A stretch of 64,000 nt of DNA, taken from the NCBI GenBank assembly GCA_963535465.1, contig CAUSWF010000002.1, positions 64,606 through 128,605 of the forward strand, read 5' to 3'. This DNA comes from an uncultured Erysipelotrichaceae bacterium (lineage in GTDB: Bacteria > Bacillota_I > Bacilli_A > RF39 > UBA660). Position numbers and translations under genes: made by a program. Shown here piece by piece: positions 2,486 through 31,787 of the stretch (its first letter is position 1; the number at the start of each line of letters is the position of its first letter). Under the pieces are notes generated by a model. That model was not told where the DNA came from. It saw only the letters and a list, made by a program, of their open reading frames with translations, and made no database searches.

Positions 2486-2535
2486 TTCTACCTAACCACT
2501 TGCATTATTGTACTGAAAAATATGTAACATTATAA

Positions 2536-3855: not shown

Positions 3856-4065
3856 AGTTTAATTAAATCCTTAGTATTAAAAATTGCTTCCTATAATTTA
3901 TTATCTGTTGAGAACCATCTACATTTAATTCCTCGAAGAATTGGTTCTTTATCAGCATTTAGATGCTTGAATATTGTTGTTTCTTTCTTTATTACCAGCA
4001 TAGTAGGTTTATTAGGAATATCCTATTTAAGCGTTACTATATCTCCAGGCATAAAGTATATTTTA

Positions 4066-4662
4066 TCATTTATCATTATTATTAAATCTTTCTGTTAGTC
4101 CAGAGTTAAAAATAGCTATAAGACTATGTTCATTAACAAGAACAAAACCTTTACGATAAAATGGTATTATAGTTTCAGATGGTTTACGCCACATTACTAT
4201 ATCACCTACTTTAGTATAAGTGCATTTAGTTCCTACTTCCATAACTTTTCCTACTTTAATAAATGGATCTTCTTCATGCATAGCACCATCTTCTCTACTT
4301 TTATAAATAGGTGCTTTACCTCCAAGATCAACAATTAAACCATCAACTTTTTTAATTCGTTGAAAAGGATTAACTACAAAAGGAGAAATAATTATGCCTT
4401 CGTAAAGAGGTTTCATTTCTAAAGTATCTAGGTTAATGTCTTTACTATAATCTGTTAATTGTTTGTTATAATTATCTAAATTAGATAAATATTCATTTAC
4501 ATCTTCTTTATGCTTATTTTCTTTTTCTATAACAAGATCATCTATTGTTTGATCTTTATTTACTATGAAACTTTTAGAATCTTCTGAACTTACTTTGATT
4601 GCTACTTTTTCTTTATTAGACGGAGTAGTATTAACGTCTCTTCCATTAATTGTTCTTATCAT
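4066..4662 (-). CDS. GroES/cpn10-like co-chaperonin (T4 gp31-like) with N-terminal extension
   Basis: The C-terminal ~100 aa (MKPLYEGIIISPF...GLIVDLGG...FIKVGKVMEVGTK...TKVGDIVMW...EHSLIAI) follow the GroES pattern (PLgDRVlv...gGIilp...G.VvAvG.G...vkvGD.Vlf...e.dILAi). No in-frame TAG; TGA stop. Confidence 0.5.
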   Translation of the reverse strand: MIRTINGRDVNTTPSNKEKVAIKVSSEDSKSFIVNKDQTIDDLVIEKENKHKEDVNEYLSNLDNYNKQLTDYSKDINLDTLEMKPLYEGIIISPFVVNPFQRIKKVDGLIVDLGGKAPIYKSREDGAMHEEDPFIKVGKVMEVGTKCTYTKVGDIVMWRKPSETIIPFYRKGFVLVNEHSLIAIFNSGLTERFNNNDK

Positions 4663-4663
4663 A

Positions 4664-4903
4664 TTACCATTTATTACTAGGACATTTTTCTTCTTTTACA
4701 GAAGTTTTTAAATTGATAAAACATCCACATAGACCACATATTTTTTGATTATCTATTACCTCTAAATATTTACATCTATTACAATACTTTAATCTATTAA
4801 AAGAAAGCTCTTTATTTTTTCCAATAGTATAATTGAATAAACCTTTTATTATATGTTTAATTTTCGTTGGAAAATTCTCCATAATATTTTTTAGCTGCTT
4901 CAT
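4664..4903 (-). CDS. small Cys-rich (putative Zn-binding) protein, paralogue of 5474..5740
   Basis: 79-aa ORF with a CxxC...CGLCGC...KT...CPSNKW pattern shared with the ORF at 5474..5740. Confidence 0.35.
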   Translation of the reverse strand: MKQLKNIMENFPTKIKHIIKGLFNYTIGKNKELSFNRLKYCNRCKYLEVIDNQKICGLCGCFINLKTSVKEEKCPSNKW

Positions 4904-5480
4904 TCCTAGCTTTAACAGCTTCTTCTAATGTATCATAACGTCCAATATATTTAGTTTTATTATTTAATGTAATTTGGGCAGTCCACTTATTTTTATCTTT
5001 TGAAAAATATACACCTTTATGTCCAGATGTATTATTTTTTGGGACAGTACAATTACATAAATTTTGTTGGTTTGTACAAATTCTTAGATTGCATTTTCTA
5101 TTATCTAACCCATTATGATTGATATGATCTATCAATATTTTTGGATCAGTAATATTTAAAATATACCTATGCAATCTTCTAAATTGTTTATTATTAGAAG
5201 TACAATAATATGTATTTCTTTGCAGATCTGATTTATGCCATCTTATAGCTTTTACTTTTTCTATATCTTCTATATCTATTAAAGCTTTTCCACATATTTC
5301 ATTATCCCTATTTATTAAAAATATTTCAGCATGATCGTCAACTATTTCTATATGGTTTGTTTTATCTTTATACGAATATTTAAAAATTTTTCCGTATCTT
5401 CTTATTTGTGTATAATGTTTAGAACATAATCCATTAGCACAAACTTTTTTACCACATCCTTCAATTTTACATATTACCAT
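4857..5480 (-). CDS. HNH homing endonuclease with C-terminal AP2 DNA-binding domain
   Basis: HNH core ...HINHNGLDNRKCNLRI... C-terminal AP2-like segment GVYFSKDKNKWTAQIT...KYIGRYDTLEEAVKARNEAAKKYYGEF. Confidence 0.7.
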   Translation of the reverse strand: MVICKIEGCGKKVCANGLCSKHYTQIRRYGKIFKYSYKDKTNHIEIVDDHAEIFLINRDNEICGKALIDIEDIEKVKAIRWHKSDLQRNTYYCTSNNKQFRRLHRYILNITDPKILIDHINHNGLDNRKCNLRICTNQQNLCNCTVPKNNTSGHKGVYFSKDKNKWTAQITLNNKTKYIGRYDTLEEAVKARNEAAKKYYGEFSNEN

Positions 5481-5740
5481 TGTTCACAAGGGCAAACACT
5501 ATCCCTATTTTTTGTTTTATATTTTAAAACACAGCCGCATCCTTTAAAATAACCATCTTTCTTTTCTAAACTAACATCTTTTGTTTTAGGATTCATATAT
5601 AATTTAGGATTACATATTCCTCCGAACTCATCCTTATATAAAGGACATTTTTTACATATATCTATTCTTATTTTAGATATATCCTTATTAAGACCAAGTA
5701 ATTCATTTACATGACCTTTTATTATATTGCCAACTTCCAT
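5474..5740 (-). CDS. small Cys-rich protein, paralogue of 4664..4903
   Basis: 88 aa with C..C...C.C...KT...CPCEQW and the same Cys spacing as 4664..4903. The two flank the HNH-AP2 gene. Confidence 0.35.
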   Translation of the reverse strand: MEVGNIIKGHVNELLGLNKDISKIRIDICKKCPLYKDEFGGICNPKLYMNPKTKDVSLEKKDGYFKGCGCVLKYKTKNRDSVCPCEQW

Positions 5741-5776
5741 AATGTTTGTTTATTATCCTATTTTCTGATGATAATC

Positions 5777-7693
5777 TTAATATTCTATCGGTTTAAGTTT
5801 GGCTAATTTTTCTTGTTTAAAAACAGACTTTTTATAAAATTTTAGCATTGATTCTACTTCTTTCTTTAAATAAGGTAAATGATAAACTGTTTGATTATCA
5901 TTATGATCAAAGTGTACTAATATTAAATCTTTAATAGTATATTCTGGATTAATTTTTTGTAACATCCATGCATAAGTAGATAACTGTAAAGCATAATGCC
6001 AGTAATTGCAATCTTCCAAAGTGTTCAATGGATACTTCATTTTAACAGAACTACGAGTTTTAGTATCAAAGCCACTATGTTGTTTGATTTCTTTATTAGT
6101 ATTATGTGTAATTATACATTTATTAGTAACTAAAAAAGTATGTAAAGGGCTGTCTACTTCTAAACATTGTGTTGGAATAGTTTCTGTAATTTCTACTTTA
6201 TTAATATTTCTAAATGAATTTTTATCTATTTTTGGAAATTCAATTTCTTGATTTCTTATTAAAAAAGGATTTAATCCATTAGTTGAGAAACATACATCCC
6301 AAGCAATAAATTCTTTACCATTACATTTTTTTATTACTTCAAAAACAGTAGATTTTATACCTAATGTTCCTAATAATTTTACAGTACAATCTCTTTGCCA
6401 TTCTTGGCCCGTAGACATTACAAAACGTTTTCTTTTAGGATGATAATAACCATCAGTATCCATTAATCCTCTTAATAAGTCTAATCTTTGATTAAATGAA
6501 GCTGTATAATACTCTTCTGGAATATGTTTATTTTTTAAAAGATTCATTTTATTTAATAAAGTTCTTAATCCATAAACAGTCCTCATTTCAGTATTTTCTC
6601 TATCAGGATTATGTTGGGCATTTTCCCCTATATCAAAGCCACGATGTTTTAGTTCATCCCATAATTTAGATTGACTTGCTTGCGTAATAATACCACAATC
6701 TTTTGAACCATCACCTAACCAAACTCCTAATAAATAAGGATCTATTAGTAAATCTTTAGTTGGAGTATTAATAGGTTTTGGATTTAGTATTTTAGGAATT
6801 GTATAAGAATTTCTAGTATAAGTTTGCATATAATTATAAAGTTCCTTTGTAGTTATTACTCCTTTAGTATAAGGTGTTTTTTTACTTTGATTTTTAAATG
6901 ATACTTCCCAACGGTGATCTTCATCAGCTACTATAGTGTCTCCGTTATCAAAAGTTATTTTGAAGCATGGATTATTATGTATAGATGATTTATGCAAAAT
7001 TCGTGTAGGATTACCGTCTCCATCAAAAATAACATCCCCTTCTTTTACAGCTCCTATAGTAGTCCATCCAGAATTTGTTAATATTTCTGTGTCTAAAGGT
7101 AATCCTTTCCAATCCATGACTGTTATTTCATTACCTTGTTTAACTAATAAATCAATCTGTCCTGCAATTCTTAGCATGTTATCAGGAGAAGTACGAGAAA
7201 TTAAGTATTCAGGATATACTCCATTTTCTAAATCTAACGCAGTTCTTCCTTTATCGCATATAAATTTACCTCCTACACCAAATTTCTTTAGTGATACATT
7301 AGCACCCATCTTATACATACTTTGCTCTAGATCTGAATGTATTTTAGTACCTCTTTCACAAGATTCTCTATTAGTTTTATCCCATTCATCTAAAATACCT
7401 TGTTGTGCTTTATTAAAATCAAGTTCAGTAATATCATACGTACTTAAAAGTTCTTTAGGTATTTTGTGTGTATTCAACAAAGATTTTCTTTCTATTTTCC
7501 AAGCATCTGAGGGAATTAACTTTTCTAATGCCTTATATCCAGACCAAAAATCTTTATCAAAGGGTTGAGCAAACTTTTCTATTAAAGTTGTTACTGAAAT
7601 AAATCTATCATTTGTATCTGTATTCCAGTATACATGGTCATTTTCACTGAATGCAATGCTTCCATTCTGTTTGTCTATTTTCATATTATTCAT
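5777..7693 (-). CDS. PD-(D/E)XK exonuclease (lambda-exo / YqaJ-like) interrupted by a LAGLIDADG intein
   Basis: N-extein (aa 1-196) ...SVTTLI...GQIDLLVKQGNEITVMDWK. C-extein (aa 532-638) TNKEIKQHSGFDTKTRSS...YWHYALQLSTYAWML, typical of phage-type exonuclease motif III and the C-terminal Q/Y motif. Between them is a 335-aa Hint + LAGLIDADG insertion. No TAG codons. Confidence 0.65.
   Translation of the reverse strand: MNNMKIDKQNGSIAFSENDHVYWNTDTNDRFISVTTLIEKFAQPFDKDFWSGYKALEKLIPSDAWKIERKSLLNTHKIPKELLSTYDITELDFNKAQQGILDEWDKTNRESCERGTKIHSDLEQSMYKMGANVSLKKFGVGGKFICDKGRTALDLENGVYPEYLISRTSPDNMLRIAGQIDLLVKQGNEITVMDWKGLPLDTEILTNSGWTTIGAVKEGDVIFDGDGNPTRILHKSSIHNNPCFKITFDNGDTIVADEDHRWEVSFKNQSKKTPYTKGVITTKELYNYMQTYTRNSYTIPKILNPKPINTPTKDLLIDPYLLGVWLGDGSKDCGIITQASQSKLWDELKHRGFDIGENAQHNPDRENTEMRTVYGLRTLLNKMNLLKNKHIPEEYYTASFNQRLDLLRGLMDTDGYYHPKRKRFVMSTGQEWQRDCTVKLLGTLGIKSTVFEVIKKCNGKEFIAWDVCFSTNGLNPFLIRNQEIEFPKIDKNSFRNINKVEITETIPTQCLEVDSPLHTFLVTNKCIITHNTNKEIKQHSGFDTKTRSSVKMKYPLNTLEDCNYWHYALQLSTYAWMLQKINPEYTIKDLILVHFDHNDNQTVYHLPYLKKEVESMLKFYKKSVFKQEKLAKLKPIEY
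6101..7105 (-). mobile_element. intein (Hint domain with two LAGLIDADG motifs) inserted directly after the catalytic Lys of the exonuclease; residue 1 is Gly rather than Cys/Ser
   Basis: Block A GLPLDTEILT (canonical CLxxDTxIxT with G in place of C). Block B DTIVADEDH. LAGLIDADG motifs LLGVWLGDGS and LLRGLMDTDGYY. C-terminal VTNKCIITHN followed by +1 Thr. Confidence 0.6.
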
Positions 7694-8379
7694 TTACATA
7701 TTTTTTTATATTATTATAATCTAGTATTGCTGCTAACTTAGAAATTTCTGGACCTATAACTACTGGATAATAAGGCATCTTATACTCTTTCTTCTTTTTA
7801 TAAAGTATTATTATTAATCCAATAGGACTATTACTTCCTGCTATAGGATAAAAAGCAGCAGCTCTAGCATTACTTGCTAAAAGTTTATTGTAAAATTTTG
7901 GCATAGAATATTTAATAGAATCTATATTATTTACTCTTAATAGAGAGTAATTATTTATTTTCTATAACTCATCTATATAATAAACATATTCAAGTTCATG
8001 CCATTCTCTTTTTGTTTCTTGCGAATCTATGCCTCTAGTCTTCTCAGTAAGGCAATTTAAATACTAGTAACTAAAACCTTGTAAACTTCTAGTTGAATTA
8101 TGATAACTTAAAAGTATTACATTTGTAGCATCAGGATCTTTATCAAGTATTGCCTAAACACTTCTATCTATTTCTGGAGCCATTTTAAGAGTATACTTTT
8201 CAGCTTCCTACTTATCATTCTCCATAGATTCAGCCCATTGTTTAATGCTGTTTTTGTTTTCAGAAATTATATAATTTCCGAGGCACCATCCTAATAATCC
8301 AATTATAATTACAGTTTTTGTTTGTGTGCCCAAACTATCTAAAAATTCCCAAATCTTTTTTATTAATTTTAATTTCATT
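7686..8379 (-). CDS. membrane-anchored late protein (~230 aa) with N-terminal TM helix, 4 in-frame TAG
   Basis: ATG at 8379-8377: MKLKLIKKIWEFLDSLGTQTKTVIIIGLLGWCLGNYII... It continues through TAG codons (8213, 8156, 8069, 7969) into the listed 72-aa ORF 7686..7904 and ends at TAA. Confidence 0.45.
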
Positions 8380-8560
8380 AAATTTTTAATTAATACTTTT
8401 TATTAAGCTTTTACTTCCTTTCAAATCTTTACGCAAATCTTAATTCTAAATATAATAAATAAACTTACTAAATTTTGAACTAAACAAATTTAATAATATT
8501 TTTACAGTAATCAAATTTAGAGATATAAATTATAACAATTTTTATAAATACGTTTATAAT

Positions 8561-9330
8561 ATGGCAGTAAATAATAGTATTTACAATAACAAAAATCCTA
8601 ATATTAAATATAATATTTAGAATTTATTTACTACGGCTAAAATTGCTTCTTTATTAAAGAAAGGAGGTAATGTACATAGAACAGATATATTTCCAGGGGT
8701 TATAGATACTAATGCTAATTTTGATAATATGAGTCCTAGGAAAAAAAGAAAAAAGATTAAAAAACATCAAGATGGAGGAGAAATAGAAGTGGTTGAATAT
8801 AATCCTGTAGTATTATCTTTAAAAAAATTAGATTATCCAGAACTAAATAATATTAATACTAAAACTTTAGATATATCTGGATTATCTTTTGATAAATTTA
8901 CTCCACCTTCTATAAATAATATGCGCGTATAGGAAAATTATCCTATAAATCCAAATATTAGTTTAGAAGATTTATTAAAACAAGAAGGAGTAAATGCAAA
9001 AGTTTCTTCTGGTTATAGAAAGGGAGCAATATCAAAAAATGGACATAAAAGTAATCATAGTCATTTAAATTCTGATGGAACTCCAGGAGCTTATGATATA
9101 GTTCCTAATGATGGTAACTTTGAAAATCTTAGAAAGGAGATATATGGTAATCCACGTATAGTTGCATGGCTTAAAGCTAAAGGTTGGGGTATTTTAGAAG
9201 AAACTACTCCTAATATTATGAGAAAAACTGGAGCTACAGGTAAACATTGGCATTTTGGTCCTGATACTGCAGCCTTAGATATGTCTAGATAGAATGGAAT
9301 TAATTATACTAAATTAGGAGGTTTATTATG
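8561..9330 (+). CDS. M15-family (VanY/L-Ala-D-Glu-type) zinc peptidase, likely virion-associated peptidoglycan peptidase; 3 in-frame TAG
   Basis: The ATG at 8561 is in frame with the listed ORF 8729..8932. The frame continues past TAG at 8618, 8930 and 9284 to TGA at 9328. Motifs: SGYR, HSHLNSDGTPGAYD (H...D zinc ligands) and terminal GKHWHFGP. Confidence 0.65.
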
Positions 9331-10470
9331 ATAGAAACTACAAAATATGATAATATAGATCAGTAGTTTGAATATCCAGATTTACCAAGTATTAATAATT
9401 CTAATAATACTATAATAGCAGATGAGGCTACTGAAAATTATCTTAGGGCTGTTCAAAATGAATATGCTTTAAAGGCTTAGAGAGATAAAGAATTATGGGA
9501 ACAACAATAGAACGTTAAAAATAATTAGCCTAATTAGTAGTATTCATTTACAGATAATAATATACCTCAAATAAGTAGTTCTAATAAACAAGGATCTTAG
9601 AAAGTAAAAGAAATACTTGATAATATGATACATGATCCTACTAAAAAAACTATATTGTTAAAAATTGCAGAAAAAGAATCTAATTTTAAAATAGATGCTA
9701 AAAATGCTAAAAGTTCTGCTAGCGGTTTATTTGGATTTTTAAATTCAACTAAACAAAAATATGGTTATGGTAATACTGCTGAATAGTAGATTTAGGGAGC
9801 ATCTAAATTATATGATGCTCATGCTACTTAGTTATAGTAGTATATAAATAAATATGGAACTAGAGGTAAATCAATAACTTAGTTAATGTATGGTATGTGG
9901 TTTAGACCTACTTCTTTACTTCATTATTTACAAACAGGTCAAGATGATTATAAAGATGCACAAGGAACTAGTTTAGAAAAAATATTTGCAAAAATGGCTA
10001 AAAATGGAGGAATATTAAAAGCATAGGATGGAATAATAATTCCAAAAGCTCCTAATACATTTAGATAGTATGGAATAGATCCTAATAAGTTTGTTAATAT
10101 GTGGAACGGACTTGTTAATAAAGGAATATCTCCACAAGTAGCATTTGATGCTACATGGCAAGCTAATAAAGAAGTTCCTAAAGGATATTATTCATATGGA
10201 AAAAAGAAACCTAATCTCAATAGTTGGGTAGAAGCTGCTTCAGATAGTTTAACCACAGGAGCATATAAAAAAGCAAAGAATGCTTAGAATTTTGATTAGT
10301 ATAGATAGGCTACTTTTAAATATAATAAAAATCCAGAATATACTAATTGGTTAAAAACTAATAGATAGGATGCTGTTAATTTTATAAACAGATATAGACA
10401 ACAAAACGGAATAGTAGGTAAACCTATAGCTTAGCTTATCCCAGTAACTTAGATAATTAATAACGTATGA
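9328..10470 (+). CDS. lytic transglycosylase (SLT-domain) protein, Q-rich, ~20 in-frame TAG
   Basis: ATG overlaps the previous TGA (ATGATAG). The SLT catalytic motif is LLKIAEKESNFKIDAKNAKSSASGLFGFLNSTKQKYGY. The frame is closed only by TGA at 10468-10470. Many TAGs sit within Q runs (WEQQ[*]NVKNN[*]PN[*][*]YSF). Confidence 0.6.
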
Positions 10471-10748
10471 TAAAGAATTTTATAAAAAGTATGTTACTAG
10501 CTACTCAAGGATCTATAAGTTCTAAAAGAGTTTGTGGAGTTCTTGGTTGGTTAGTATGTTTAGGTATTTGTATTTACTGTACAGTTGGTTAGATACAAGC
10601 TCCTATACTAGCAGACAGTGTTCTTATAGGTAGCGCAGCATTAATGGGCGTAGATAGTGTTACAGGTATATGGAAAAATAAAAGAGATATAAATATTATA
10701 AAAGAAAATGAAACTAATGTAGAACAAAATAATAGTTTAGTATAATAA
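10467..10748 (+). CDS. holin-like small membrane protein (2 TM), 1 in-frame TAG
   Basis: ATGA overlap start. 93 aa: MIKNFIKSMLLATQGSISSKRVCGVLGWLVCLGICIYCTVG[Q]IQAPILADSVLIGSAALMGVDSVTGIWKNKRD... It lies between the peptidoglycan-hydrolase genes. Confidence 0.45.
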
Positions 10749-10750
10749 AT

Positions 10751-13183
10751 ATGACTCAAATAAAATTTGATAAATCTAAAAAATATTATGATAGTAAATT
10801 AAATAAATACTATGGTTAGGGTATTTGGTTTAAGGATACTAATGATGATGGTAAATATAATGAAGGAGAATCTTTAATTCCTATGGGAAATAGAATTAAA
10901 AATTCTAATAATTCTTATGTACAATTAAATTCTGATGGAAGTAGAACTTTATTATATTCTAAAGGTAAATTTACTAATACTAATATTTCAAATGTAGATA
11001 AATAGGCTATATCTAAAGGATTAATATATGGACGCAATGCTTCTTTACAAAATAATAAATATGTAAGATCTAATAATGGCATAAGTAATTGGGATATAGA
11101 TACAGTTAGACAAAAAAATAAAGATGGAAGTTATACAGATATTAATAATAATACATCTTTTATATATAATAAAAATAAATATATTGGAACAGCTGGCAGT
11201 AAAAATGTAATAGATTTATATCATAACGTAGTAAGTAATGATGGAGGTAAAACTTGGTCTAGAAATTCTACAACTCAAAAATCTGTAAGTCCTTTTATTA
11301 CAAGACGCTATGGTACATAGCCTTTAGGTTAGTATTTAAATCCAGATACTAATATTAAAACAAATTATGCTGAAGTTAATTTTGGAGATACTAATGGTTA
11401 GAATCAATATTTAAAAAATAATTATTGGGTATATGATGATGGTAATGGTAATGTTCAAACTATCGGATTTAGGTATAAAGATGGTAAAGATTATGCGTTT
11501 TTATCAGACGATAATAATTTTTTAAATGATAATGTTTCTGGTATTTTAAAATCTAAATAGAGTATAGGTTCATCTAAACTTAAATCTTATAGTGCTGGTT
11601 TTACTCCAGGTATGGAAAAATGGAGAGGAAAAGGTGGATGGTATACAAATGTAGGATAGGATCTCCCCGATATAGTATACGGTGCTAAAGATGGTTATTT
11701 ATATAATAAACAAGGATAGCAAATAGGATTTAATGCAAATGGTACTTATTATTTAAAAAATAATATTATTGCTTCTGAAGAAAAACCTACATTTAAGAAT
11801 ACTTTAGTAAATGGGTGGTCTGGCTTAGTACAAGACTTTAGTAATTTAAGTTCTAGATTTGATCCTTCTAATAATTAGGGTTTCCAAAATAGATTTACTG
11901 GAATATTTGGAGATTTAGGTAGAGGAATACAGCATGCTGCATAGGGTACTGTAGGGGCATTAGCTACTGCTATTATTCCAGATAGTTTGAATGAAACCAT
12001 AGGTAAGTATGGTTAGATTACCGATATAGGAAAAGATTTAAGAAGTATAACTAGTTTATTTGGTAATGGGAAATTTGTTACACCTTGGGATTAGGATAAC
12101 CATGGCCTTGTTGATTACGCAGATATAATTGGCAACAAACAAGGTCTTCAAGATATAAACGATGCATTAAATGGAGCAACTGTTTTAATCGGAACTAAAG
12201 GATTAGGCACAACAAAAGAAGTTTTAAAAGGAACACTGCAGGGAACAAAAGCTATGAGGTTTACTGAAGCTGCTCTTAAAGGAGCAAAAAATACTTCTAA
12301 AAATATATATTCAAATGGAGCATATTATACAGGAAAAGCAGGATTACGTCCAAGTAATATTACTCCTATGATTAATGCTGTTAAACAAGGTTTTAAAAAT
12401 GCACGTACTTATTATGAAGAATCTGCTCCAGTAGTAACAAAACCAACAATAGTTGAGTCTAAACCAGTAACAGCAGGTACAAAATAGTATATACAACCTA
12501 CAATAAAAAAACTTAATCCAAATAAAGGTGCTGAAGTAGTATATAATATGAAATTTAATCCTGTTTAGGAAGCTTAGAATATAATGGCTAAACCTAAATT
12601 TATATTTAAAGAAAATTCTATAGTACATGTTCCTAAAGGATTACCTGTAAAAGTAGAATAGCCTGTACTAACATAGCAACCTGTTGTTAAACCGTCTGTA
12701 CAAAAAATTCCTAAAACTGCACCTAAACAATTAACTTTAGAGTTTGTGGAAGATAAACCTAAATATGTACAACCTATATTAAAACAGCTTAATGATGCTA
12801 AAAAAGCTGAAATTGCAAGTAAAATAGTTCCTATAGATTATGCAAATGTAGCACATACTATAATGTAGTCTAAACCTACTATATAGCTTCCAGAATTTAG
12901 ATTTTCTTCTAAATTTAATCCTGTTTCTGAAGCTAAAGCTAGAACAGTTAGTAATACTTCAAATGTAGGAAATATTCCTAATAAAAATATTAAGTATGTA
13001 GAAAGTCAACCTACAGTTAATAATTCTAAAATACTACAGTGGAAGCAAGCTAAAGAAATTAAAGCAGTACCTAAAACAATGAAACCTAAAAGTAAAAGTA
13101 AAATATTGAAAAAAGTAAATAAAAAATATTTAGGTGGAATTTTAAATAATAAATTTAATAATTGGATAAATGCAAATAACTAA
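10751..13183 (+). CDS. large virion protein (~810 aa; tail fibre / receptor-binding candidate), ~23 in-frame TAG
   Basis: One frame is continuous from ATG 10751 to TAA 13181-13183 once TAG is read through, and it contains the listed ORF 12254..12487. Asn/Gly/Tyr-rich beta-like composition. Internal repeats KFNPV(Q/S)EA near the C-terminus. No recognisable catalytic motif. Confidence 0.5.
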
Positions 13184-13697
13184 TTTTATAAAATATATAT
13201 AGAGTTGGGAAGGAGGTTATGCTAATATACCTCAAGATAGTGGAGGTCCTACTAATAAAGGAATTACCCTAACTACTTTCCGATCTATATTTGGGCAAAA
13301 CAAAACAATAGATGATTTAAAGAAAATGACAGATGAGCAATGGTGGAAAGTATTTAAAACTAAATTTTGGGATAAATACAAAGCAGATAATATTAAAGAT
13401 GAATGGTTAAGATATTTATTAGTAGACTGGTTATGGTGTTCTGGTCAATGGGCTATTACTAAAGTTTAGAAATTACTGGGATTAAATCCAGATGGAATTG
13501 TCGGAGACAGAACTATAACAGCTATTAATAGTAAAAATCCTAAACAATTATTTGATACTATTTGGAAGATGAGAGAAAAATTCCTTCAAGATATTTCTAA
13601 AGGTAAGAATAGTATATTTTTAAAAGGATGGCTTAGACGTCTTAATGGGCTTAAATATGGTTATTTAGTAACTAGTAATAATAAAATATTAAAATGA
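13170..13697 (+). CDS. endolysin: GH108-family lysozyme N-domain plus PG_binding_3 C-domain; 2 in-frame TAG
   Basis: MQITNFIKYI[Q]SWEGGYANIPQDSGGPTNKGITLTTF (GH108 'EGGY...D.GG.T..GIT' motif) ...WAITKV[Q]KLLGLNPDGIVGDRTITAIN (PG_binding_3 'LQxxLG..DG..G..T'). Ends at TGA 13695-13697. Confidence 0.7.
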
Positions 13698-13924
13698 GTT
13701 TTATAACAAATTTTAAAGAATCCAATAGGTATAAACACTTTTGGTGTGCTATACCTATTGGATTAATTTTTACTATACTTTGTGTTATTGGGTGTGCAGG
13801 AGGTATGGAATTTAAAGATAAACAATATAGTAATTATTGGGATTGGAAAGATTTTGGATTTACTGTATTAGGAGGATTTGTCGGACAGATATTATAGATT
13901 ATATTAATATTAATTTTATTATAA
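13694..13924 (+). CDS. small 2-TM membrane protein (holin/antiholin-like), 1 in-frame TAG
   Basis: MSFITNFKESNRYKHFWCAIPIGLIFTILCVIGCAGG...FGFTVLGGFVGQIL[Q]IILILILL*. The listed ORF 13694..13897 stops at a TAG; the true stop is TAA at 13922-13924. Confidence 0.4.
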
Positions 13925-15273
13925 TGCCAAAACCTTTTGATTTAGATTTACATAAAAGTTATAATGTAAATAATAAAAGTAAAAATTATAAGTCCTTTAC
14001 TGGGGCTAATGGAGAATTATGGTATACTGATAGACCTTTAATTACTTATAATAATAGTAAATTAGCTTATGTAACTAACGGAAGAAATGCTAGATGGGTT
14101 ACTGTTGGAAATGAATTTAATACTTAGCCTTAGATGTTATCTAGAGAACAAGCTGTAAAACGAGATCTTAATAAACCTAGAATACAAGCAGCTAATGATT
14201 TAACTTAGGGTTTAACTGATCTTATTACAGGAGGAATGGCTGGATCATTAAGAGAAGGGGCTTAGAATCTTACTAAAGGTAATTATATTAAGGGTATTTC
14301 ATAGTTAGCTACACCTGCCATGTTTGGATCTGGAATTGCAGGAAATATAGCAAGAGCAGGTGTCGGATCTTATAATTTATTAAATGAAGATAGAGTTAGA
14401 AAAACATATAAATATATTAATAATAAGGAATATGGGAATGCTGCTGTTTCTGGATTAGGAGATATTTTAAATGGAGGTATGGCTATACATGGTGGTACTT
14501 AGTTATTTAAAAACTACAGAATAGTTGAACCTAAATTATTAAGTGCTAATTTAAATAATAAAAATATGCCATATTACTCTTAGTTTGAATAGTAGGAAGC
14601 ATAGCAACATATGATATCTGATATAAAAAGAGGTTATTAGAATTTTAAAGATTGGATGACGAATCCTCATTATTTAGAATCTACTTTAGACAACATGGAA
14701 GAAGCTAAAAGAATGGGTTTAAAATATACACCTACTTATGATAAACCTCATTATAAAGCACTAATGTAGAACGGTATTAAAATTAATTTTAAGAAATAGA
14801 TGCAGGGTAATGGTGCTACTAGTTAGTTTGGTGCATAGGCCGGACATCCTGCTGAAGTTGATTTAAATTTAGGATCACCACAATCATTTTTTAATACTGT
14901 AAGACATGAATCTGGGCATGCTGCTTATCATGGTAATGGGTTAACTCCAGATGAACTTAAATATTTAAGATTTAAAACTCATTAGGCTTTTATAGATAAG
15001 GCTGAGGCTGGTCCTTATGATTTTCATTAGTAGACTGGTGAAGCTGCTATGAACGGTAGAGATTTAGGACATGATTTAGGAATATCTGTAGGACAATCTT
15101 ATCCAGGATATTAGAAAGCTTTAGAAACATTAAATTCAGGACTAGGCAAATCTACAAAAGATGGAATGATTAAATTATTTAAAACAGATGAACAATCTAT
15201 GCCTTATGTATGGAAATTACTTAATGGTACTTTACTAGGAGGAGCTTTAGTAACTAAATTTAATAATAAATGA
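13924..15273 (+). CDS. virion/lysis-associated protein (~449 aa) with HExxH zinc-metalloprotease-like motif; ~20 in-frame TAG
   Basis: ATG 13924 (taATG overlap). The frame contains the listed ORF 14320..14502 and ends at TGA 15271-15273. Motif ...SFFNTVRHESGHAAYHGNG... (HExxH). Confidence 0.45.
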
Positions 15274-15278
15274 ATAAA

Positions 15279-15313
15279 GGCGAGCATCAATTAAGATGTT
15301 CGCCTTTCTTTTT
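15279..15313 (+). terminator. rho-independent terminator closing the recoded late block
   Basis: GGCGAGCATC-aattaa-GATGTTCGCC: a 10-bp stem with one G.U pair, followed by TTTCTTTTT. Confidence 0.6.
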
Positions 15314-15782
15314 AAATTTAAAATTATGAAAAACTTTATTAATTTCTTTTTCTAGATCTTCTTTTATTTTTCTATTAATTCTATCAGCAATTTCTTGCTA
15401 CCTAATACATATTTTCCAAGAAGATTTTTCATTTTCTATCTGGATCTATTGATAGTTTATTTAACTCATCTTGATAATCTAAAAACCAAGATTCGTCTAA
15501 ACATTTATTATCTGTACATAACTTTCTAAATGTATATAAATTCTTAATTAAAAACTTAGAAAGTTTCTTAAGTATTTTAATTTTTAATTTCATCCAATAA
15601 TTTTTGTTTCCAAAATAAATATTCTTTTGAATTTTCTAGTTTATGTAATTTAAAGAATTTCTTTATTCTTTTTATATTCTTTATACTATGATATAGTTTA
15701 TTCTTATAACATTCTGAAATTTCATCATTAGATACATTAAAATACTTACAAAGTTTAATCATTAAGTGGTATACTAACATAG

Positions 15783-15870
15783 TTGCCTCGCTAGGATTCG
15801 AACCCAGATTGACGCCCTCAGAAGGCTACAGATTTAGAGTCTGCCGTAATAACCATTATACTACAAGGCA
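15783..15870 (-). tRNA. amber suppressor tRNA, anticodon CUA, class II (long variable arm, 87 nt); anticodon arm matches bacterial tRNA-Tyr
   Basis: Reverse complement: tgccttg-ta-gta/taatggttat/tac-g-gcaga/CT[CTA]AA/tctgt-long variable arm-ctggg/ttcgaat/cctag-cgaggca-A73. The anticodon stem-loop GCAGA CUCUAAA UCUG(U) differs from the E. coli tRNA-Tyr arm (GCAGA CUGUAAA UCUGC) only at position 34 and the closing pair. Confidence 0.65.
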
Positions 15871-15876
15871 TTAAAG

Positions 15877-15948
15877 TTATCCCACTAGGATTCGAACCCA
15901 GACTAAGAGGGTTAGAGCCTCCTGTGCTAGCCGTTACACCATAGGACA
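15877..15948 (-). tRNA. amber suppressor tRNA, anticodon CUA, class I (72 nt), tRNA-Gln-derived
   Basis: Reverse complement: tgtccta-tg-gtgt/aacggcta/gcac-a-ggagg/CT[CTA]AC/cctct-tagt-ctggg/ttcgaat/cctag-tgggata-A73. U1:A72, D-arm, 4-nt variable loop and T-arm closely parallel the phage tRNA-Gln(UUG) at 31788-31858. Confidence 0.65.
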
Positions 15949-16134
15949 ATAAATGTGGGAGCCGCCCACTTAATAAAATAAAAGATTTATTGGCTAAATA
16001 ATCTTAATTATTAAAATACTCAATCACCATCCTTTATATTCTCCTTAAGTATTTTAATTTCTTCACTTAGTATTGCTAAAGCATGTCTTGCTTGAAATAA
16101 TCTATTTTCTAATTCAGAAAATATTTTATCTTTA

Positions 16135-16707: not shown

Positions 16708-18180
16708 TCATAATATAAATTTATAAATAGTTACTCTTTTATAATCTACTTGTTTTCTTGTCTTTTTAAATTCAGGAAAAAATGATTTTATTGTATTATT
16801 ATTCCATGTAAGTTGGTGTTCTTTTAATAAAGGTTTAAATATTTCCTGTATTTCATCTGAAGTATATTCTGATTTATTCAGTTCTACTAATTTATTATAT
16901 ATAAAAGGCAAGCCATGTTTAATTTTACTTGTAGCAATATTTGGTGTAAATGAATATTCCTCTGCTTCTTTTAATACTGCTAAACTATCAGAATAAATTT
17001 CACTAATTAAATCGTAGTTATATAGATCCAGTTTTCTAAGATTATCATCGTAAAATATCTTATCATTATGTTTATTAAGATATAAATTATAATAAGTATC
17101 TTTACTAAATAATTTTAATTCAGTTATATAATCATCAGCATCTAATTTATCTGTAAGTTCTGCTTTTCGTATACCTCTTCTTCTGGAATCTTCTACTAAA
17201 TTTAGAAAGTCTGTTTTAATAGTTCCTGCATATCTATGTTTATTTGTATTTAATATAAGTATACATTCATCTTTATATTTAGAATCTCGAAGTCGTCCAC
17301 ATACTTGTCTAACTTTAGTAGCTATATCTAATACTGTATTAGATACATTAGTATCTGATAATATTATACATAATCCATTTTTATCGTAAATATCACATCC
17401 TTCAAAAGCACATGATGTATAAAAATTTAAATGTTTTACTTCTGAATTTACTTCTGCATAATTACGTATTTTATTTTTACTATTTACTGAGCATACTACT
17501 CTATAATCTGGATTATCTAATTTTTTAATGATCGCATTTATTGTAGCTATAGAATTTAAAAATATATGTAAGTTTCTATCTTTATACATATCTATAATAT
17601 ATAATAATTCTTTCTGCACATAAAAAGTATCTCGAATATTTAGTTTAACAGGAACAGAATTTTGCCATTCATATGTAATTTGAGGTATATCCTTTAACTC
17701 TTCTAAAATACATTCAGGCTTAAGCGGAGTAGCTGTTAAGAATGCCCAATCTTTAAATTTATTAAAGTTTTGAAGAATATTTACAATAGCATCATTTCTA
17801 AAACTATAATCATTAAATAATAAGTGATATTCATCTATTAGTAAAAAATAATCTGGATAATTAGGAATTAACTCCATAAGTCTTGGAAGAGAATCATATG
17901 TAGCTATAATCTTTTTATATTCTAATGCTTTCTTTAAATAATTTTTAATTACTGTATTACCTACATCTCCCGTAACTCCTAGAACATTATCATTTGATTT
18001 AGATATTACTAAATTTTTAGTAGGACTAAGTATTAAACTATTCCGCCTAGCATTGATTTCAAGAGTTGTTCCGCCACAACCTGTGATTCCTTTATTAATA
18101 AGACAGTGTGATGGTAATTCATTAATTATATCTGATAAATATTGACACTTTTTGTCAATTAAAATTTTTTCATTTTGCAT
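16708..18180 (-). CDS. superfamily-2 DExH-box helicase-like ATPase
   Basis: P-loop GITGCGGTT, DExH-like LLIDEYH, motif III LTATP. 490 aa, no TAG. Confidence 0.5.
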   Translation of the reverse strand: MQNEKILIDKKCQYLSDIINELPSHCLINKGITGCGGTTLEINARRNSLILSPTKNLVISKSNDNVLGVTGDVGNTVIKNYLKKALEYKKIIATYDSLPRLMELIPNYPDYFLLIDEYHLLFNDYSFRNDAIVNILQNFNKFKDWAFLTATPLKPECILEELKDIPQITYEWQNSVPVKLNIRDTFYVQKELLYIIDMYKDRNLHIFLNSIATINAIIKKLDNPDYRVVCSVNSKNKIRNYAEVNSEVKHLNFYTSCAFEGCDIYDKNGLCIILSDTNVSNTVLDIATKVRQVCGRLRDSKYKDECILILNTNKHRYAGTIKTDFLNLVEDSRRRGIRKAELTDKLDADDYITELKLFSKDTYYNLYLNKHNDKIFYDDNLRKLDLYNYDLISEIYSDSLAVLKEAEEYSFTPNIATSKIKHGLPFIYNKLVELNKSEYTSDEIQEIFKPLLKEHQLTWNNNTIKSFFPEFKKTRKQVDYKRVTIYKFIL

Positions 18181-25013: not shown

Positions 25014-25086
25014 GGGGCAATAGCAAAGCTGGTCAATGCGTTGGACTGAAAATCCAAAGATAATGGTTCGATTCCATTTTGTCCCA
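25014..25086 (+). tRNA. tRNA-Phe (anticodon GAA)
   Basis: ggggcaa-ta-gca/D-loop/tgc-g-ttgga/CT[GAA]AA/tccaa-agata-aatgg/ttcgatt/ccatt-ttgtccc-A. Confidence 0.7.
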
Positions 25087-25094
25087 CTACAAAT

Positions 25095-25166
25095 CGCGAG
25101 GTAGAGCAGTGGTAGCTTATTAGGCTCATAACCTAATGGTCGCAGGTTCGATTCCTGCCTTCGCAA
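25095..25166 (+). tRNA. tRNA-Met (anticodon CAU), initiator-like C1xA72 mismatch
   Basis: cgcgagg-ta-gagc/agtggta/gctt-a-ttagg/CT[CAT]AA/cctaa-tggtc-gcagg/ttcgatt/cctgc-cttcgca-A. Strong similarity to bacterial tRNA-fMet. Confidence 0.65.
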
Positions 25167-25172
25167 CATATT

Positions 25173-25259
25173 GGAGAGTTGGCTGAGTGGCTTAAAGCGC
25201 TGGTCTTGAAAACCAGAGGGCGGTAAAACGCTCCAAGAGTTCGAATCTCTTACTCTCCT
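25173..25259 (+). tRNA. tRNA-Ser (anticodon UGA), class II
   Basis: ggagagt...ctggt/CT[TGA]AA/accag-long variable arm-aagag/ttcgaat/ctctt-actctcc. Confidence 0.65.
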
Positions 25260-25267
25260 CTTATATT

Positions 25268-25353
25268 GGAGATTTAAGCCTAATTGGTAAGGCAGCAGTT
25301 TGCTAAACTGCCAGTAATCGTAGTAATATGATGTATAGGTCCTATAATCTCCA
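25268..25353 (+). tRNA. tRNA-Ser(GCU)-like with non-canonical T-arm (possibly degenerate)
   Basis: Good acceptor stem (ggagatt/aatctcc), D-arm and anticodon arm gcagt/TT[GCT]AA/actgc. The region where the T-arm should be is a short hairpin (tatagg-t-cctata) without a TTC loop. Confidence 0.35.
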
Positions 25354-25375
25354 CAATTAATTTAAATAAAAGATT

Positions 25376-25585
25376 ATGAAAAAATTTAATAATCATTTGT
25401 TACCAAATGGTTTATGGTATTTAGTACAAGCATACCTTATTAGTACAGAATGGCAATGGTATAAGGATAATAATATTAAATATGAATCTGCTACAAAATT
25501 AACTGCTGGGCAATTATCTAATTTAGTTGCTAATGCTATTAGTTGGAGTGTAAAACGTATTCAATATAATACTGAAAATACTTAA
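25376..25585 (+). CDS. small hypothetical protein, member of a tRNA-adjacent paralogue pair (with 27967..28194)
   Basis: MKKFNNHLLPNGLWYLVQAYLISTEWQWYKDNN... versus MKKFKGHVLPDDLFYMIVSYSEKTKWQWFKDNN... Each lies immediately 3' of a tRNA gene. Confidence 0.45.
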   Translation: MKKFNNHLLPNGLWYLVQAYLISTEWQWYKDNNIKYESATKLTAGQLSNLVANAISWSVKRIQYNTENT

Positions 25586-25635
25586 AAGATAAATAAAAAT
25601 CTACAGGCAATAATAATTTAATTAAAGCCTATTAT

Positions 25636-25706
25636 GCTCTTGTCGTCTAATGGTAGGACATGAGACTTTCTATCGTAGAATTACGGTTCGAATCCGTGCT
25701 TGAGTA
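25636..25706 (+). tRNA. tRNA-Glu(UUC)-like, degenerate (two U.U mismatches in acceptor stem, A.G mismatch in anticodon stem, U37): possible pseudo-tRNA
   Basis: D-arm gtct/aatggta/ggac and T-arm tacgg/ttcgaat/ccgtg are canonical and resemble the intact tRNA-Glu at 30128. The acceptor (gctcttg/cttgagt) and anticodon stems are imperfect. Confidence 0.35.
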
Positions 25707-25942
25707 CAATTATTAGTTCTTACATAATAATTACGTCATTGTATTGTCGGGTATAAAAATACAACGGTAATAGATATTCCGTAAATATATCTAAGTACAA
25801 GCAGTAGTACTAGTTAGTAATTCATAAGTAAGACATTGATTACTAAAACTGAAAACAGTTATATCTATTATAATTGCAAATATAGTATTTATAATTACAG
25901 TAAGTTTGTTATACTCTAATGTGGGTTTTGAACTTACTAAAT

Positions 25943-26010
25943 TGGAGTACCAAGGCTGGAGAATCTCCCTTGCATGGAGATTGTGGGGAGTTCGATTCTC
26001 TTTACCTCCA
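25943..26010 (+). tRNA. tRNA-like element (canonical T-arm; anticodon-arm hairpin reading UGC/Ala-like); 5' half could not be folded into a standard acceptor stem
   Basis: atctcc/CT[TGC]AT/ggagat perfect anticodon-arm hairpin, then ttgtg, gggag/ttcgatt/ctctt, tacctcc-A. No upstream partner for the acceptor 3' strand was found by eye. Confidence 0.3.
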
Positions 26011-26359
26011 CATTTCTAACATGATATCGGGACAAAGCGTTGTCCAATCTAGCAGAATATAAATACATCATTTTTAAACAAGTAGTAAGTTATTGTGAAA
26101 TAATTTACTATATTTGCTTAGGTAGTCAACGACAGCAGGCTTGCCCCGAAAGGTTCATAGGTCCTATCCTAAGCGCATTTACTAATTAAACATTTTATAA
26201 ACATTAAAAAAGAAATATATTAAACCAGAAATCAAAACAATTAAAATAGATAATGAACCTTGTATGAATAATACAAGCCAACATAAAGAAGGATCTTCAT
26301 GGGTATGTCCATGTGATAAAGACTCTGTTACTATAGAAAATTTAATAAATAAATAAATA

Positions 26360-27232
26360 ATGGAAAATAAAGTATTTTTTGGAGAAAGTGGTTTAACTTC
26401 TACAAGTGCAAATCATGTAGCAAACCTTGCTAAAGAGTTCATTAGTTCAAATGAAAACTATCTTAATAGCATTTCTTTCATTAATTGTAAAGTAGGACTT
26501 ATCGGTAGTGATAAAGATCAAACTTACAGTTTAGGTGTACAAAATTTAAATGATATTGAAGTTATATTAGCAGATATTGCTAAATGTAAAGCATTGATTG
26601 CTTGGTTACGTGAGGCTATTAAAGCTAAGAATGCTTTAATTTCAGATATTAATAATTTTAATATTTCAAGTTATTGTCAACTTAAAGGACTACCTAATCC
26701 TGAACGTCCTCAACTTCCAGATTATTTAACAGCTGAAGAATATTATGATTCTCTTCCTATTAAAGAAAGAAATGAATATTATTCTTTGGAAGCAGAAGCA
26801 GCAACTTTAGGTCAGTTTATTCATCCTGGAGGTAATCTTAATCAGCAACGTAGTTTGTTATCTGAGAAATTAATGCACCCAATTAAATCTGAGGGAGAAG
26901 GAAGGGATACCATATTGTATAAGTATAGTCCTTCTATTAGTTTAGAAGAAGTGGATAGTACTTTCTTTAAGCTGCAGGCTAAACATAGAGAAATTCAAGC
27001 CAGATTAAATGGGATGAAGCATCTTTGTGAAATAGCTATGCAGCAAGACCGATTGCAAAAGGATAATACTTATAAGGCAGCTGATAATACATATTTTACA
27101 AAAATGCATGAACTTGCAAACGAAGTTAATATCTATAAAGACGAAGAACTTACAAGAATTCAGAATCTTAAGATTGTTATTCCAAATTCTCTAGAAAGTA
27201 TTTATAAAAAGATACAATCATTGGGTAAATAA
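26360..27232 (+). CDS. hypothetical protein (290 aa)
   Basis: Intact ORF, TAA stop, no TAG. Confidence 0.5.
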   Translation: MENKVFFGESGLTSTSANHVANLAKEFISSNENYLNSISFINCKVGLIGSDKDQTYSLGVQNLNDIEVILADIAKCKALIAWLREAIKAKNALISDINNFNISSYCQLKGLPNPERPQLPDYLTAEEYYDSLPIKERNEYYSLEAEAATLGQFIHPGGNLNQQRSLLSEKLMHPIKSEGEGRDTILYKYSPSISLEEVDSTFFKLQAKHREIQARLNGMKHLCEIAMQQDRLQKDNTYKAADNTYFTKMHELANEVNIYKDEELTRIQNLKIVIPNSLESIYKKIQSLGK

Positions 27233-27859
27233 GAACTTAGAGGCTTGACCTCTTAATCTTATTGAATATGTTTAATAGATGTCATTTATCTATGAATAAA
27301 ATTATTGCTAATTTAGTAATAATATTTTAAGTTTGTAACTTAAAATTGAATGTATACTCTTTCAAAACTTATATTTAAAAGTAATCTGAACAATTACTGC
27401 TTTTGTTTTCGAAGAAAGAGTATGTTCTTGATATTGATTTTATTTTAGTTTTAGTTGGCATTTATTAAACATAACTCAATATTTTAAATATGTTTTTAAA
27501 TTTATTAATTATTATAATATTAGTATTAATTTTTGAATTATTACTTAATATTATTAAAATAATAGCTAAAATTTATCTTGATGAAATACGTAATTTGTAA
27601 TTATAATAATTATTCAGTAATTGAAATAATCGAATCTGATAACTTTATAAAAGTTGAAGAAAGATTAAAACAATTAAATAAAGGTTATAATAACGAATTA
27701 ATTATAATATCCTTACATAGGTATAATAAACTTATTAAAGGATTAGTATCAAAAATAAATAGAATTAAAAATATGTTAATGTAAAAATATGTGGAGAGGA
27801 GCAATGTTCTACTGTGGAGATGATAATGCATTCCTAGAATTATTCAACCCTTTCCCTAT

Positions 27860-27932
27860 GCTCATATAGCTCAGTTGGTAGAGCACTGGTCTCCAAAACC
27901 AGGTGTCCCCGGTTCGATTCCTACTGTGAGTG
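27860..27932 (+). tRNA. tRNA-Trp (anticodon CCA) with weak T-stem
   Basis: gctcata-ta-gctc/agttggta/gagc-a-ctggt/CT[CCA]AA/accag-gtgt-cccgg/ttcgatt/cctac-tgtgagt-G. Body nearly identical to bacterial tRNA-Trp. The T-stem has only 2 Watson-Crick pairs. Confidence 0.55.
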
Positions 27933-27966
27933 CATTTTAATAAATTAATTAATTAATTAAATAATT

Positions 27967-31782: not shown

Positions 31783-31787
31783 AAGTT

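Follow-up and report, generated by a model that had tools for sequence, protein, structure and literature searches.

Two adjacent transfer RNA (tRNA) genes with the anticodon CUA were found on the minus strand of a 64,000-nucleotide (nt) stretch of contig CAUSWF010000002.1 (positions 64,606 to 128,605, deposited under an uncultured Erysipelotrichaceae bacterium as GCA_963535465.1), which is referred to as the window in the following. One is a class I tRNA at 15877-15948, the other a long tRNA at 15783-15870. The window is part of a large crAss-like gut phage, in which the late genes use TAG as a glutamine (Gln) codon and the replication genes use the standard code. Our best joint explanation, to which we assign a probability of roughly 70%, is that both tRNAs are suppressors of Gln lineage that would insert Gln at UAG, and that a second arm in the long tRNA, situated in the variable-arm position, would serve as a pseudo-anticodon.

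Detection and anatomy of the two CUA tRNAs

ARAGORN reported 12 RNA genes in the window, with minus-strand tRNAs of anticodon CTA at 15782-15870 and 15876-15948. The Rfam model RF00005 returned 57.7 bits for the long tRNA (15783-15870) and 54.1 bits for the class I tRNA (15877-15948), comparable with the ordinary tRNAs of the window and well above the gathering score of 29; the covariance model rejected neither cloverleaf. Both show the features of an amber suppressor, namely a 7-nt loop in which CUA occupies positions 34-36, preceded by U33 and followed by a purine at 37 (CUCUAAC in the class I tRNA, CUCUAAA in the long tRNA), and the two loops differ at position 38 (C in the former, A in the latter). 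A first-pass annotation, made from the letters alone, had proposed two genuine tRNAs with 7-nt CUA loops, and this was borne out together with its anatomical details: U1:A72 in the class I tRNA, A73 in both, and a D stem of 3 base pairs (bp) with a long variable region in the long tRNA.

The class I tRNA comprises 72 nt (UGUCCUA-UG-GUGU-AACGGCUA-GCAC-A-GGAGG-CUCUAAC-CCUCU-UAGU-CUGGG-UUCGAAU-CCUAG-UGGGAUA-A), with U1:A72, A73, a variable loop of 4 nt (UAGU) and the anticodon at 15913-15915, as placed by ARAGORN at position 34; CCA is not encoded. The long tRNA comprises 88 nt (UGCCUUG-UA-GUAU-AAUGGUUA-UUAC-G-GCAGA-CUCUAAA-UCUGU-A-GCCUUCUGAGGGC-GUCAAU-CUGGG-UUCGAAU-CCUAG-CGAGGCA-A). Its acceptor stem UGCCUUG/CGAGGCA likewise has U1:A72 and A73, its D stem consists of 3 bp and a U.U mismatch, and its variable region measures 20 nt (A-GCCUUCUGAGGGC-GUCAAU). 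The decoding arm GCAGA-CUCUAAA-UCUGU lies at 15828-15844 in the canonical 27-43 position, as also placed by Rfam, with CUA at 15835-15837. In the variable-arm position, at 15814-15826, lies the putative pseudo-anticodon arm GCC-UUCUGAG-GGC, the loop of which contains CUG (15819-15821) followed by A. The T arm, CUGGG-UUCGAAU-CCUAG, is identical in both tRNAs.

A minus-strand spacer of only 6 nt (CUUUAA, 15871-15876) separates the two genes, and equally tight spacing was found in the related loci L004, L007, L008, L012, L013 and L017. This implies a single transcript, from which both tRNAs are probably made. In L007, L013 and L017 both tRNA genes are 100% identical to those of the window, whereas the flanking DNA is only 83-90% identical. 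Hence, the genes are not chance matches and are under purifying selection.

The extra arm as a putative second Gln anticodon arm

When the collection was scanned with the extra-arm string GCC-N7-GGCGU-N7-GGUUCGAAUCC, two kinds of matches were obtained. The first kind were ordinary class I tRNA-Gln(UUG/CUG) and tRNA-Glu, in which NCGCC-CUYUGRA-GGCGU represents the anticodon arm and precedes a variable loop of 4 nt. The second kind were long tRNAs with the string in the variable position, and the upstream arm carried CUA in every one of them. With regard to this shared string, the "variable arm" of the long tRNA corresponds to the 3' 15 nt of a Gln anticodon arm, and the molecule as a whole is a tRNA-Gln with two anticodon arms in tandem. 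In the window tRNA, G36' of the pseudo-anticodon is located exactly 12 nt before the T stem, which is the register of a class I anticodon with a 4-nt variable loop. The hairpin of the long tRNAs has only 3-5 bp and is followed by a single-stranded 3' linker of 6 nt.

Two further interpretations of the arm were considered and set aside. A mimic of the UGA stop codon was rejected, as UG is invariably preceded by a pyrimidine (C or U). An excisable CUA hairpin, the removal of which would leave a tRNA-Gln(CUG), appears unlikely, as the remaining stem is mismatched in most members and bacteria are not known to splice a 17-nt hairpin at that tRNA position.

Recurrence and conservation of the long CUA tRNAs

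For the survey of long CUA tRNAs, CUCUAAA followed by a T loop 20-34 nt later was required, and all counts refer to the matches listed (120 loci). Among these, 57 distinct long CUA tRNAs were found, 44 of them with a Gln-type body. The latter have a class I D arm, G73 (33/44) or A73 (11/44), and in 41 of 44 cases a weak or mismatched 1:72 pair (U:A, A.C, U.C, U.U or A:U). Y-U-G was present within the variable-region hairpin in all 44 and Y-U-G-A in 43, compared to 3.3 of 44 in composition-preserving shuffles. As a control, YUGA was found in one of 13 long CUA tRNAs whose body is not of Gln type (mostly canonical class II), in none of 19 UCA tRNAs and in none of 8 UUA tRNAs.

The register of the second loop is equally constrained. 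The distance from G36' to the T stem is 12 nt in 40 of the 44 tRNAs and 11 nt in the other four, while the linker on the 5' side varies by five nt. Position 34' is occupied by C or U only, corresponding to the two Gln anticodons, and has switched between them at least three times among near-identical arms (L167/L142, L027/L016 and L080/L177). The hairpin stems are diverse (GCC/GGC, GCG/CGC, CCA/UGG, CC/GG, GGGG/CCCC, CUGG/CCAG), and the acceptor and decoding-arm stems of the family have diverged widely. In an alignment of 18 family members, 94% of the cells were paired, with compensatory changes at all five pairs of the CUA arm and at two of the five hairpin pairs. Judged from these patterns, the second copy of the arm is evidently held by purifying selection to a Gln anticodon loop in a fixed register. 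With UUCUGAG as its hairpin loop and 12 nt between G36' and the T stem, the window tRNA belongs to this family.

A class I and a long CUA tRNA occurred together in 21 of 91 loci with CUA tRNAs, usually 3-6 nt apart; this is a lower bound, since the loci are short. The lineages with such pairs (the group of the window, L167/L169, L170, L173, L175/L082 and L009) have unrelated acceptor and anticodon stems. We take this recurrence in unrelated lineages to argue that the class I and long forms are complementary and not merely redundant. A scan of one genome for each of 185,579 prokaryotic species returned six such long tRNAs, all on contigs of metagenome-assembled genomes (Bacillota, Acutalibacteraceae, Oscillospiraceae, Erysipelotrichaceae, Mollicutes and Nanosyncoccus), and the family is essentially phage-borne.

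Several other tRNAs were observed in the course of the survey. Beside its long CUA tRNA, locus L079 carries a 92-nt tRNA (1713-1804, minus strand) with a Gln-like acceptor stem (UGGGGCA..., G73), a long variable region and the anticodon loop CCUGAAA; ARAGORN calls it Ser-UGA, yet position 33 is C, and it may be a further unusual member. Rfam tRNA matches of 194 and 131 nt lie beside the long CUA suppressor of L120 (2137-2330 and 2876-3006, plus strand), which suggests intron-containing tRNA genes and fits the intron-rich zeta crAss-like phages. Canonical class II CUA suppressors with G1:C72 or similar and a GAGCGG/GAGUGG D loop were found in phage and Bacteroidales contigs, for example L375 (2626-2718, an Alistipes finegoldii contig), L011/L014, L087, L093 and L132. 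They may represent true amber suppressors for Tyr, Ser or Leu.

A parallel in opal suppressors

Long tRNAs with the anticodon UCA were scanned in the same way. CCA was found in the variable hairpin of all 19 distinct long UCA tRNAs, extended to CCAA in 18 of them; the loop mostly reads (C/G)UCCAAA, which is the tRNA-Trp anticodon loop. Of the 19, 13 possess the Trp body of bacteria (A1:U72 and G73), and in eight the second arm is a complete anticodon arm with a 5-bp stem and a 7-nt loop. The register to the T stem is 11-12 nt. The two patterns do not mix, as CCAA was found in none of the 44 Gln-bodied CUA tRNAs and YUGA in none of the 19 UCA tRNAs. The long UUA (ochre) suppressors, which served as a control (n=8), are canonical class II tRNAs without a pseudo-anticodon. 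Glutaminyl- and tryptophanyl-tRNA synthetases (GlnRS and TrpRS) depend strongly on the anticodon, while the seryl and leucyl enzymes (SerRS and LeuRS) do not. The cognate loop is present in the Gln and Trp suppressors and absent from the class II and UUA suppressors, a distribution that fits a role in synthetase recognition.

Lineage of the class I and long tRNAs

The class I tRNA had been described as a derivative of tRNA-Gln, and this description stands. It resembles the ordinary phage tRNA-Gln(UUG) at 31788-31859 on the plus strand, which was used as the reference Gln body (U1:A72, UG, GUGU D stem, A73), and it is 90-95% identical to CUA tRNAs annotated as tRNA-Gln in Crassvirales cr7_1, cr53_1, cr124_1 and cr60_1. 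In the blastn search against annotated phages only the class I tRNA was matched; the long tRNA had no annotated relative there. Furthermore, 20 ad hoc isotype hidden Markov models (HMMs) were built from approximately 1,170 phage tRNAs with masked anticodons. The class I tRNA scored best with the Gln model (29.6 bits, next Glu with 19.1 bits). For the long tRNA, the Gln model also ranked first (19.9 bits), followed by Ser (17.4 bits) and Tyr (15.3 bits). Its Gln score was 25.4 bits without the extra hairpin, and L027, a less diverged relative, reached 31.8 bits.

Further comparisons of the long tRNA gave a similar picture. Its 5' and 3' segments weakly favoured Gln as the nearest body (26.1 compared to 24.7 for an odd Leu tRNA). 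It can be aligned over its full length to the tRNA-Gln(UUG), the class I CUA tRNA and other phage Gln tRNAs, save for one insertion of 16 nt. The D arm, with the D loop AAUGGUUA, is of class I type, and relatives possess the 4-bp GUGU/GCAC stem of Gln tRNAs. Judged by their sequences, both CUA tRNAs are of Gln lineage.

The first-pass annotation had instead assigned the long tRNA to a Tyr lineage with a supF-type anticodon change, and this assignment was not upheld. From the proposed identity elements of tyrosyl-tRNA synthetase (TyrRS), A73, U35 and the long variable region are indeed present; the first pair, however, is U1:A72 instead of G1:C72, and the class II D arm (GAGCGG/GAGUGG) is missing. 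Moreover, A73 is shared by the phage tRNA-Gln(UUG), and within the family G73 prevails (33 of 44). The long tRNA also combines a D arm of class I Gln type with the T arm of its Gln neighbour, and the Gln HMM scored best. The supF-like stem GCAGA/UCUGU on which the assignment was based is one of many covarying stems in the family (GCGGA, GCGGU, CGACU, GGAGU, CCGGU, GCUGA). A class II tRNA for Tyr, Ser or Leu was rejected for the long tRNA in general, as the body is Gln-type, the hairpin is derived from an anticodon arm and TAG does not stand for Y, S or L.

The amino acid encoded by TAG

The large terminase was translated with X at TAG and aligned to 120 database homologues. In 119 of these, Q occupies positions 173 and 456; position 509 is E in 104 and Q in 16, and no TAG column favours Y, S or L. 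Of the nine loci that align at position 456, eight have CAA or CAG as the codon. The relatives L013, L018 and L012 (67-93% identical) were compared codon by codon, and TAG was opposite CAA or CAG in approximately 40 of approximately 80 non-identical cases. AAA and GAA were the next most frequent partners, TAT occurred once, and TTA, TCA and TCG were rare. Since CAA is two mutations away from TAG and TAT only one, this exchange pattern is that of synonymous Gln codons. The amino acid composition did not discriminate, as reading TAG as Gln raises Gln from 3.2 to 5.7% and reading it as Tyr raises Tyr from 5.2 to 7.7%. On this comparative evidence, TAG is a Gln codon in the phage. Proteomic proof of Gln at TAG exists for code-15 phages (Peters 2022, PMC9523058). 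The earlier suggestion that TAG might be decoded ambiguously as Gln and Tyr is disfavoured by TAG at invariant terminase Gln positions and by approximately 40 CAA/CAG exchanges as opposed to one TAT.

Proposed mechanism and alternative explanations

In the proposed mechanism, both tRNAs would insert Gln at UAG, and the late genes would become translatable once the tRNAs accumulate. Gln would be attached by the host GlnRS, or else by GluRS together with GatCAB. The 5' copy of the arm, with its canonical D-stem junction, full 5-bp stem and CUA, would decode UAG on the ribosome, where the second arm would be tolerated like a class II variable arm. The 3' copy has the canonical junction to the variable loop and T arm, a shortened stem and the native Gln loop (CUG and A). 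GlnRS reportedly recognises U35 and G36 (Rould 1991, Jahn 1991), and with a CUA anticodon G36 is no longer available. We infer that the retained loop acts as a pseudo-anticodon, giving the host GlnRS the U35-G36-A37 determinants that the CUA anticodon lacks; the anticodon seen by the synthetase would thereby be uncoupled from the one seen by the ribosome. With one canonical junction retained in each arm, stacking under the D stem would in principle be open to either of them, and a conformational switch between charging and decoding is conceivable, albeit speculative. The class I partner could be a simple variant that is charged less efficiently, or it could complement the long tRNA through different decoding properties (C38 instead of A38).

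Several points weigh against this interpretation. In the known GlnRS-tRNA complex, the enzyme contacts the inner side of the L, with the variable region pointing away from it, and a tertiary rearrangement has to be postulated for a short hairpin in the variable position to reach the anticodon-binding domain. As the class I partner is also conserved and lacks the arm, suppression does not require this arm. The Gln margin for the long tRNA of the window is modest (19.9 compared to 17.4 bits) because its D arm has diverged. A73, U35 and a long variable region are Tyr determinants as well, and some charging of the long tRNA by TyrRS is formally conceivable. Finally, the scans for long tRNAs forced CUCUAAA and a T loop, and their counts are samples.

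The alternative that we take most seriously, while still considering it unlikely, is that the extra arm is a functionless relic of a tandem duplication and that the two tRNAs are redundant, raising suppressor dosage. The duplication origin is clear, and class I tRNAs work without the arm. A relic would, however, hardly keep U35', G36' and A37' nearly invariant while acceptor, decoding-arm and hairpin stems and 5' linkers diverged, nor would its position 34' toggle only between two Gln anticodons in a fixed 3' register; in addition, the Trp-type opal suppressors share the pattern, and the pair of class I and long tRNAs is kept in unrelated lineages. The conservation demonstrates selection on the loop and not its cause, and together with the geometry problem of GlnRS this leaves some room for a function unrelated to the synthetase, such as a decoy or shield against anticodon nucleases, a site for a phage factor or modification enzyme, or tuning of ribosome or EF-Tu interactions. 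Phages do counter tRNA-targeting defences. Such functions appear improbable, as the loop matches the cognate anticodon exactly where the synthetase depends on it (Gln and Trp) and is absent from long UUA and canonical class II suppressors, the likely synthetases of which ignore the anticodon.

Two other alternatives concern the charging amino acid. The long variable region might turn the tRNA into a substrate of the anticodon-blind LeuRS or SerRS, as in nev-tRNAs and allo-tRNAs, and TAG would then be partly Leu or Ser. The region does form a hairpin, A73 is found in tRNA-Leu, and Ser is the second-best HMM (17.4 bits). We nevertheless regard this as very improbable, since the hairpin has merely 3-5 bp with a 3' linker of 6 nt next to a class I-type D arm, the canonical class II suppressors lack the YUGA loop and stand apart as a group of their own, TAG columns never favour L or S, and exchanges with TTA, TCA and TCG are rare. 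Even less credence is given to a supF-type tRNA-Tyr(CUA) with ambiguous reading of TAG as Gln and Tyr. In its favour are A73, U35, the long variable region and the arm GCAGA-CUCUAAA-UCUGU, which differs from that of E. coli tRNA-Tyr by the anticodon base and one stem base; phage CUA tRNAs charged with Tyr also exist (PMC12636597). These are outweighed by U1:A72, the class I D arm, the Gln-type T arm, a Tyr HMM score below that of Gln, an anticodon stem that covaries freely within the family, the prevalence of G73 (33/44), and a single TAG-TAT exchange compared to approximately 40 with CAA/CAG, with TAG at positions that are Q in 119 of 120 homologues.

Gln-lineage suppressors with a pseudo-anticodon are accordingly our preferred reading for the window. 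The broader proposition, namely that phages evolved natural two-headed suppressors with a CUA or UCA arm for the ribosome and a cognate arm (CUG/UUG for Gln, CCA for Trp) for an anticodon-dependent synthetase, is put forward tentatively and at somewhat less than even odds.

Genome context of the tRNA pair

Homologues of the large terminase sit on contigs of 140-190 kb, and crAss-like phages of this kind were described by Yutin et al. 2021 (PMC7886860). The G+C content of the window is 28%. In 1-15273, long open reading frames appear only when TAG is treated as a sense codon. In-frame TAG was counted 88 times in 3,580 codons of nine late genes and not once in 5,280 codons of fourteen other genes, and these counts, along with PHROG matches, delimit a late-gene block at 1-15273. 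It includes the recoded large terminase (1-1967, minus strand; phrog_6681), a transglycosylase-like protein (9313-10470, plus strand) and an endolysin (13170-13697, plus strand; phrog_315). The rest of the window is in the standard code and encodes helicases, a DnaB-like protein, a primase-like protein and NrdD. The location of the tRNA pair at the end of the recoded block, noted in the first-pass annotation, was confirmed; the recoded late genes are the clients of both amber suppressors.

The CUA pair ends a short leftward standard-code unit (genes 18180 to 16135) and is directed towards the end of the recoded block on the plus strand. The last recoded gene is immediately followed by a terminator-like plus-strand hairpin with a 13-bp stem and a T run (15276-15307), which converges on the tRNA pair; two terminator-like sites were found compared to 0.2 expected. 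Just upstream of the class I tRNA, on the minus strand, a short G+C hairpin (GUGGGCGGCUCCCAC, then AUUUAUU; 15955-15969) may represent a signal for attenuation or processing, positioned between the standard-code genes upstream and the tRNAs. A scan for sigma-70 promoters gave no excess over shuffles (Bacteroidota promoters lie outside the sigma-70 model used). No theta/HDV-like (hepatitis delta virus-like) ribozyme was found near the tRNAs in the AT-rich trailer of the window, nor was there an Rfam match in 11 related loci.

Directly upstream of the tRNA unit, a protein of 490 amino acids (16708-18180, minus strand) is encoded, which has no Pfam or PHROG match, contains helicase-like motifs (GITGCGGTT, LLIDEYH, TATP) and is kept beside the tRNA pair in L013. 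Within the recoded block, the minus-strand gene at 5777-7693 is in the standard code; it is similar to PD-(D/E)XK-type nucleases and contains an intein with LAGLIDADG motifs (LLGVWLGDGS ... LMDTDGY), while its homologue in L018 (3908-4810, PDDEXK_1) has 300 amino acids and no insert.

Ten more tRNA genes lie on the plus strand of the standard-code region at 25014-37922 (Phe, Met, two Ser, two Glu, Trp, Gln, Arg and His), a count that includes one Ser-GCU-like gene detected by Rfam only; neither tRNA-Tyr nor tRNA-Leu is present in the tRNA set of the window. The Rfam-only gene (25268-25353, plus strand; 42 bits, missed by ARAGORN) directly follows tRNA-Ser(UGA) and is class II-like with the loop UUGCUAA (GCU, Ser AGY), and its T arm is apparently reduced to a 5-bp stem and a 3-nt loop. 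Moreover, a phage transfer-messenger RNA (tmRNA) was found at 35955-36276 on the plus strand (Rfam 72.8 bits); its tag peptide, as predicted by ARAGORN, is AKVIPMNSFAVRIAA, after which two stops occur. In L079, a related phage locus that has a long CUA tRNA, a tmRNA occurs as well, together with a ROOL RNA. A phage tmRNA for ribosome rescue may be linked to stop-codon recoding.

Comparison with known systems and significance

Late genes with TAG as Gln in standard-code hosts are characteristic of code-15 gut phages, and both tRNAs of the window share the placement of CUA on a Gln body with the phage code-15 tRNA-Gln(CUA) (Ivanova 2014; Yutin 2021, PMC7886860; Borges 2021 preprint; Peters 2022, PMC9523058) and with E. 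coli supE. The class I tRNA is an ordinary member of this group, 90-95% identical to crAss-like examples. The long tRNA, in contrast, possesses an additional 16-nt arm with a Gln anticodon loop, which is not mentioned in those papers. In E. coli extracts, Gln is loaded onto phage CUA tRNAs and Trp onto UCA tRNAs (PMC12636597).

The closest counterpart is synthetic. Engineered pseudo-anticodon variable arms work in E. coli with a modest effect (Mukai 2020, PMC7590224); in these constructs as well, a hairpin at the variable-arm site imitates the cognate anticodon arm, which allows the anticodon-binding domain of a synthetase to be recruited, and UAG is decoded through a CUA anticodon. Whereas they were built on an engineered allo-tRNA chassis with HisRS (histidyl-tRNA synthetase) fusion enzymes, the long tRNAs described here are natural, have Gln (and Trp) bodies and would need to be served by unmodified host enzymes. 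In the literature searched, including the main papers on recoded phages (subscription-only literature lay outside the search), no description of a natural suppressor with two anticodon arms was found, but only this synthetic analogue. A long, hairpin-forming variable region is shared with bacterial class II tRNAs (Tyr, Ser, Leu) and with supF, as are A73 and the 3-bp D stem of the window copy. The long tRNA differs from these in having U1:A72 instead of G1:C72, a class I-type D arm and a short hairpin with a long 3' linker; its hairpin derives from an anticodon arm, and TAG is not Tyr. Nematode nev-tRNAs and allo-tRNAs (Mukai 2017, PMC5389517) also combine an added or unusual long variable arm with an anticodon foreign to the class II amino acids. 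There, the variable arm confers Leu or Ser, while here the body and the variable loop both point to Gln.

For the window itself, the suggestion of ambiguous Gln/Tyr decoding is removed. Beyond this, the layout shows a route by which a class I tRNA can gain a long variable arm, namely duplication of the anticodon arm, and the long tRNAs are natural scaffolds for orthogonal tRNA design. Borges et al. leave open how suppressor tRNAs stay good substrates of host synthetases, and the conserved second loop offers a concrete, testable mechanism, in which the decoding anticodon is kept apart from the identity anticodon. If true, the two-headed design would solve the crippled charging that follows an anticodon change in tRNA-Gln and tRNA-Trp, and it would provide a general mechanism behind the phage reassignments of TAG to Gln and TGA to Trp as well as a ready design for genetic code expansion.

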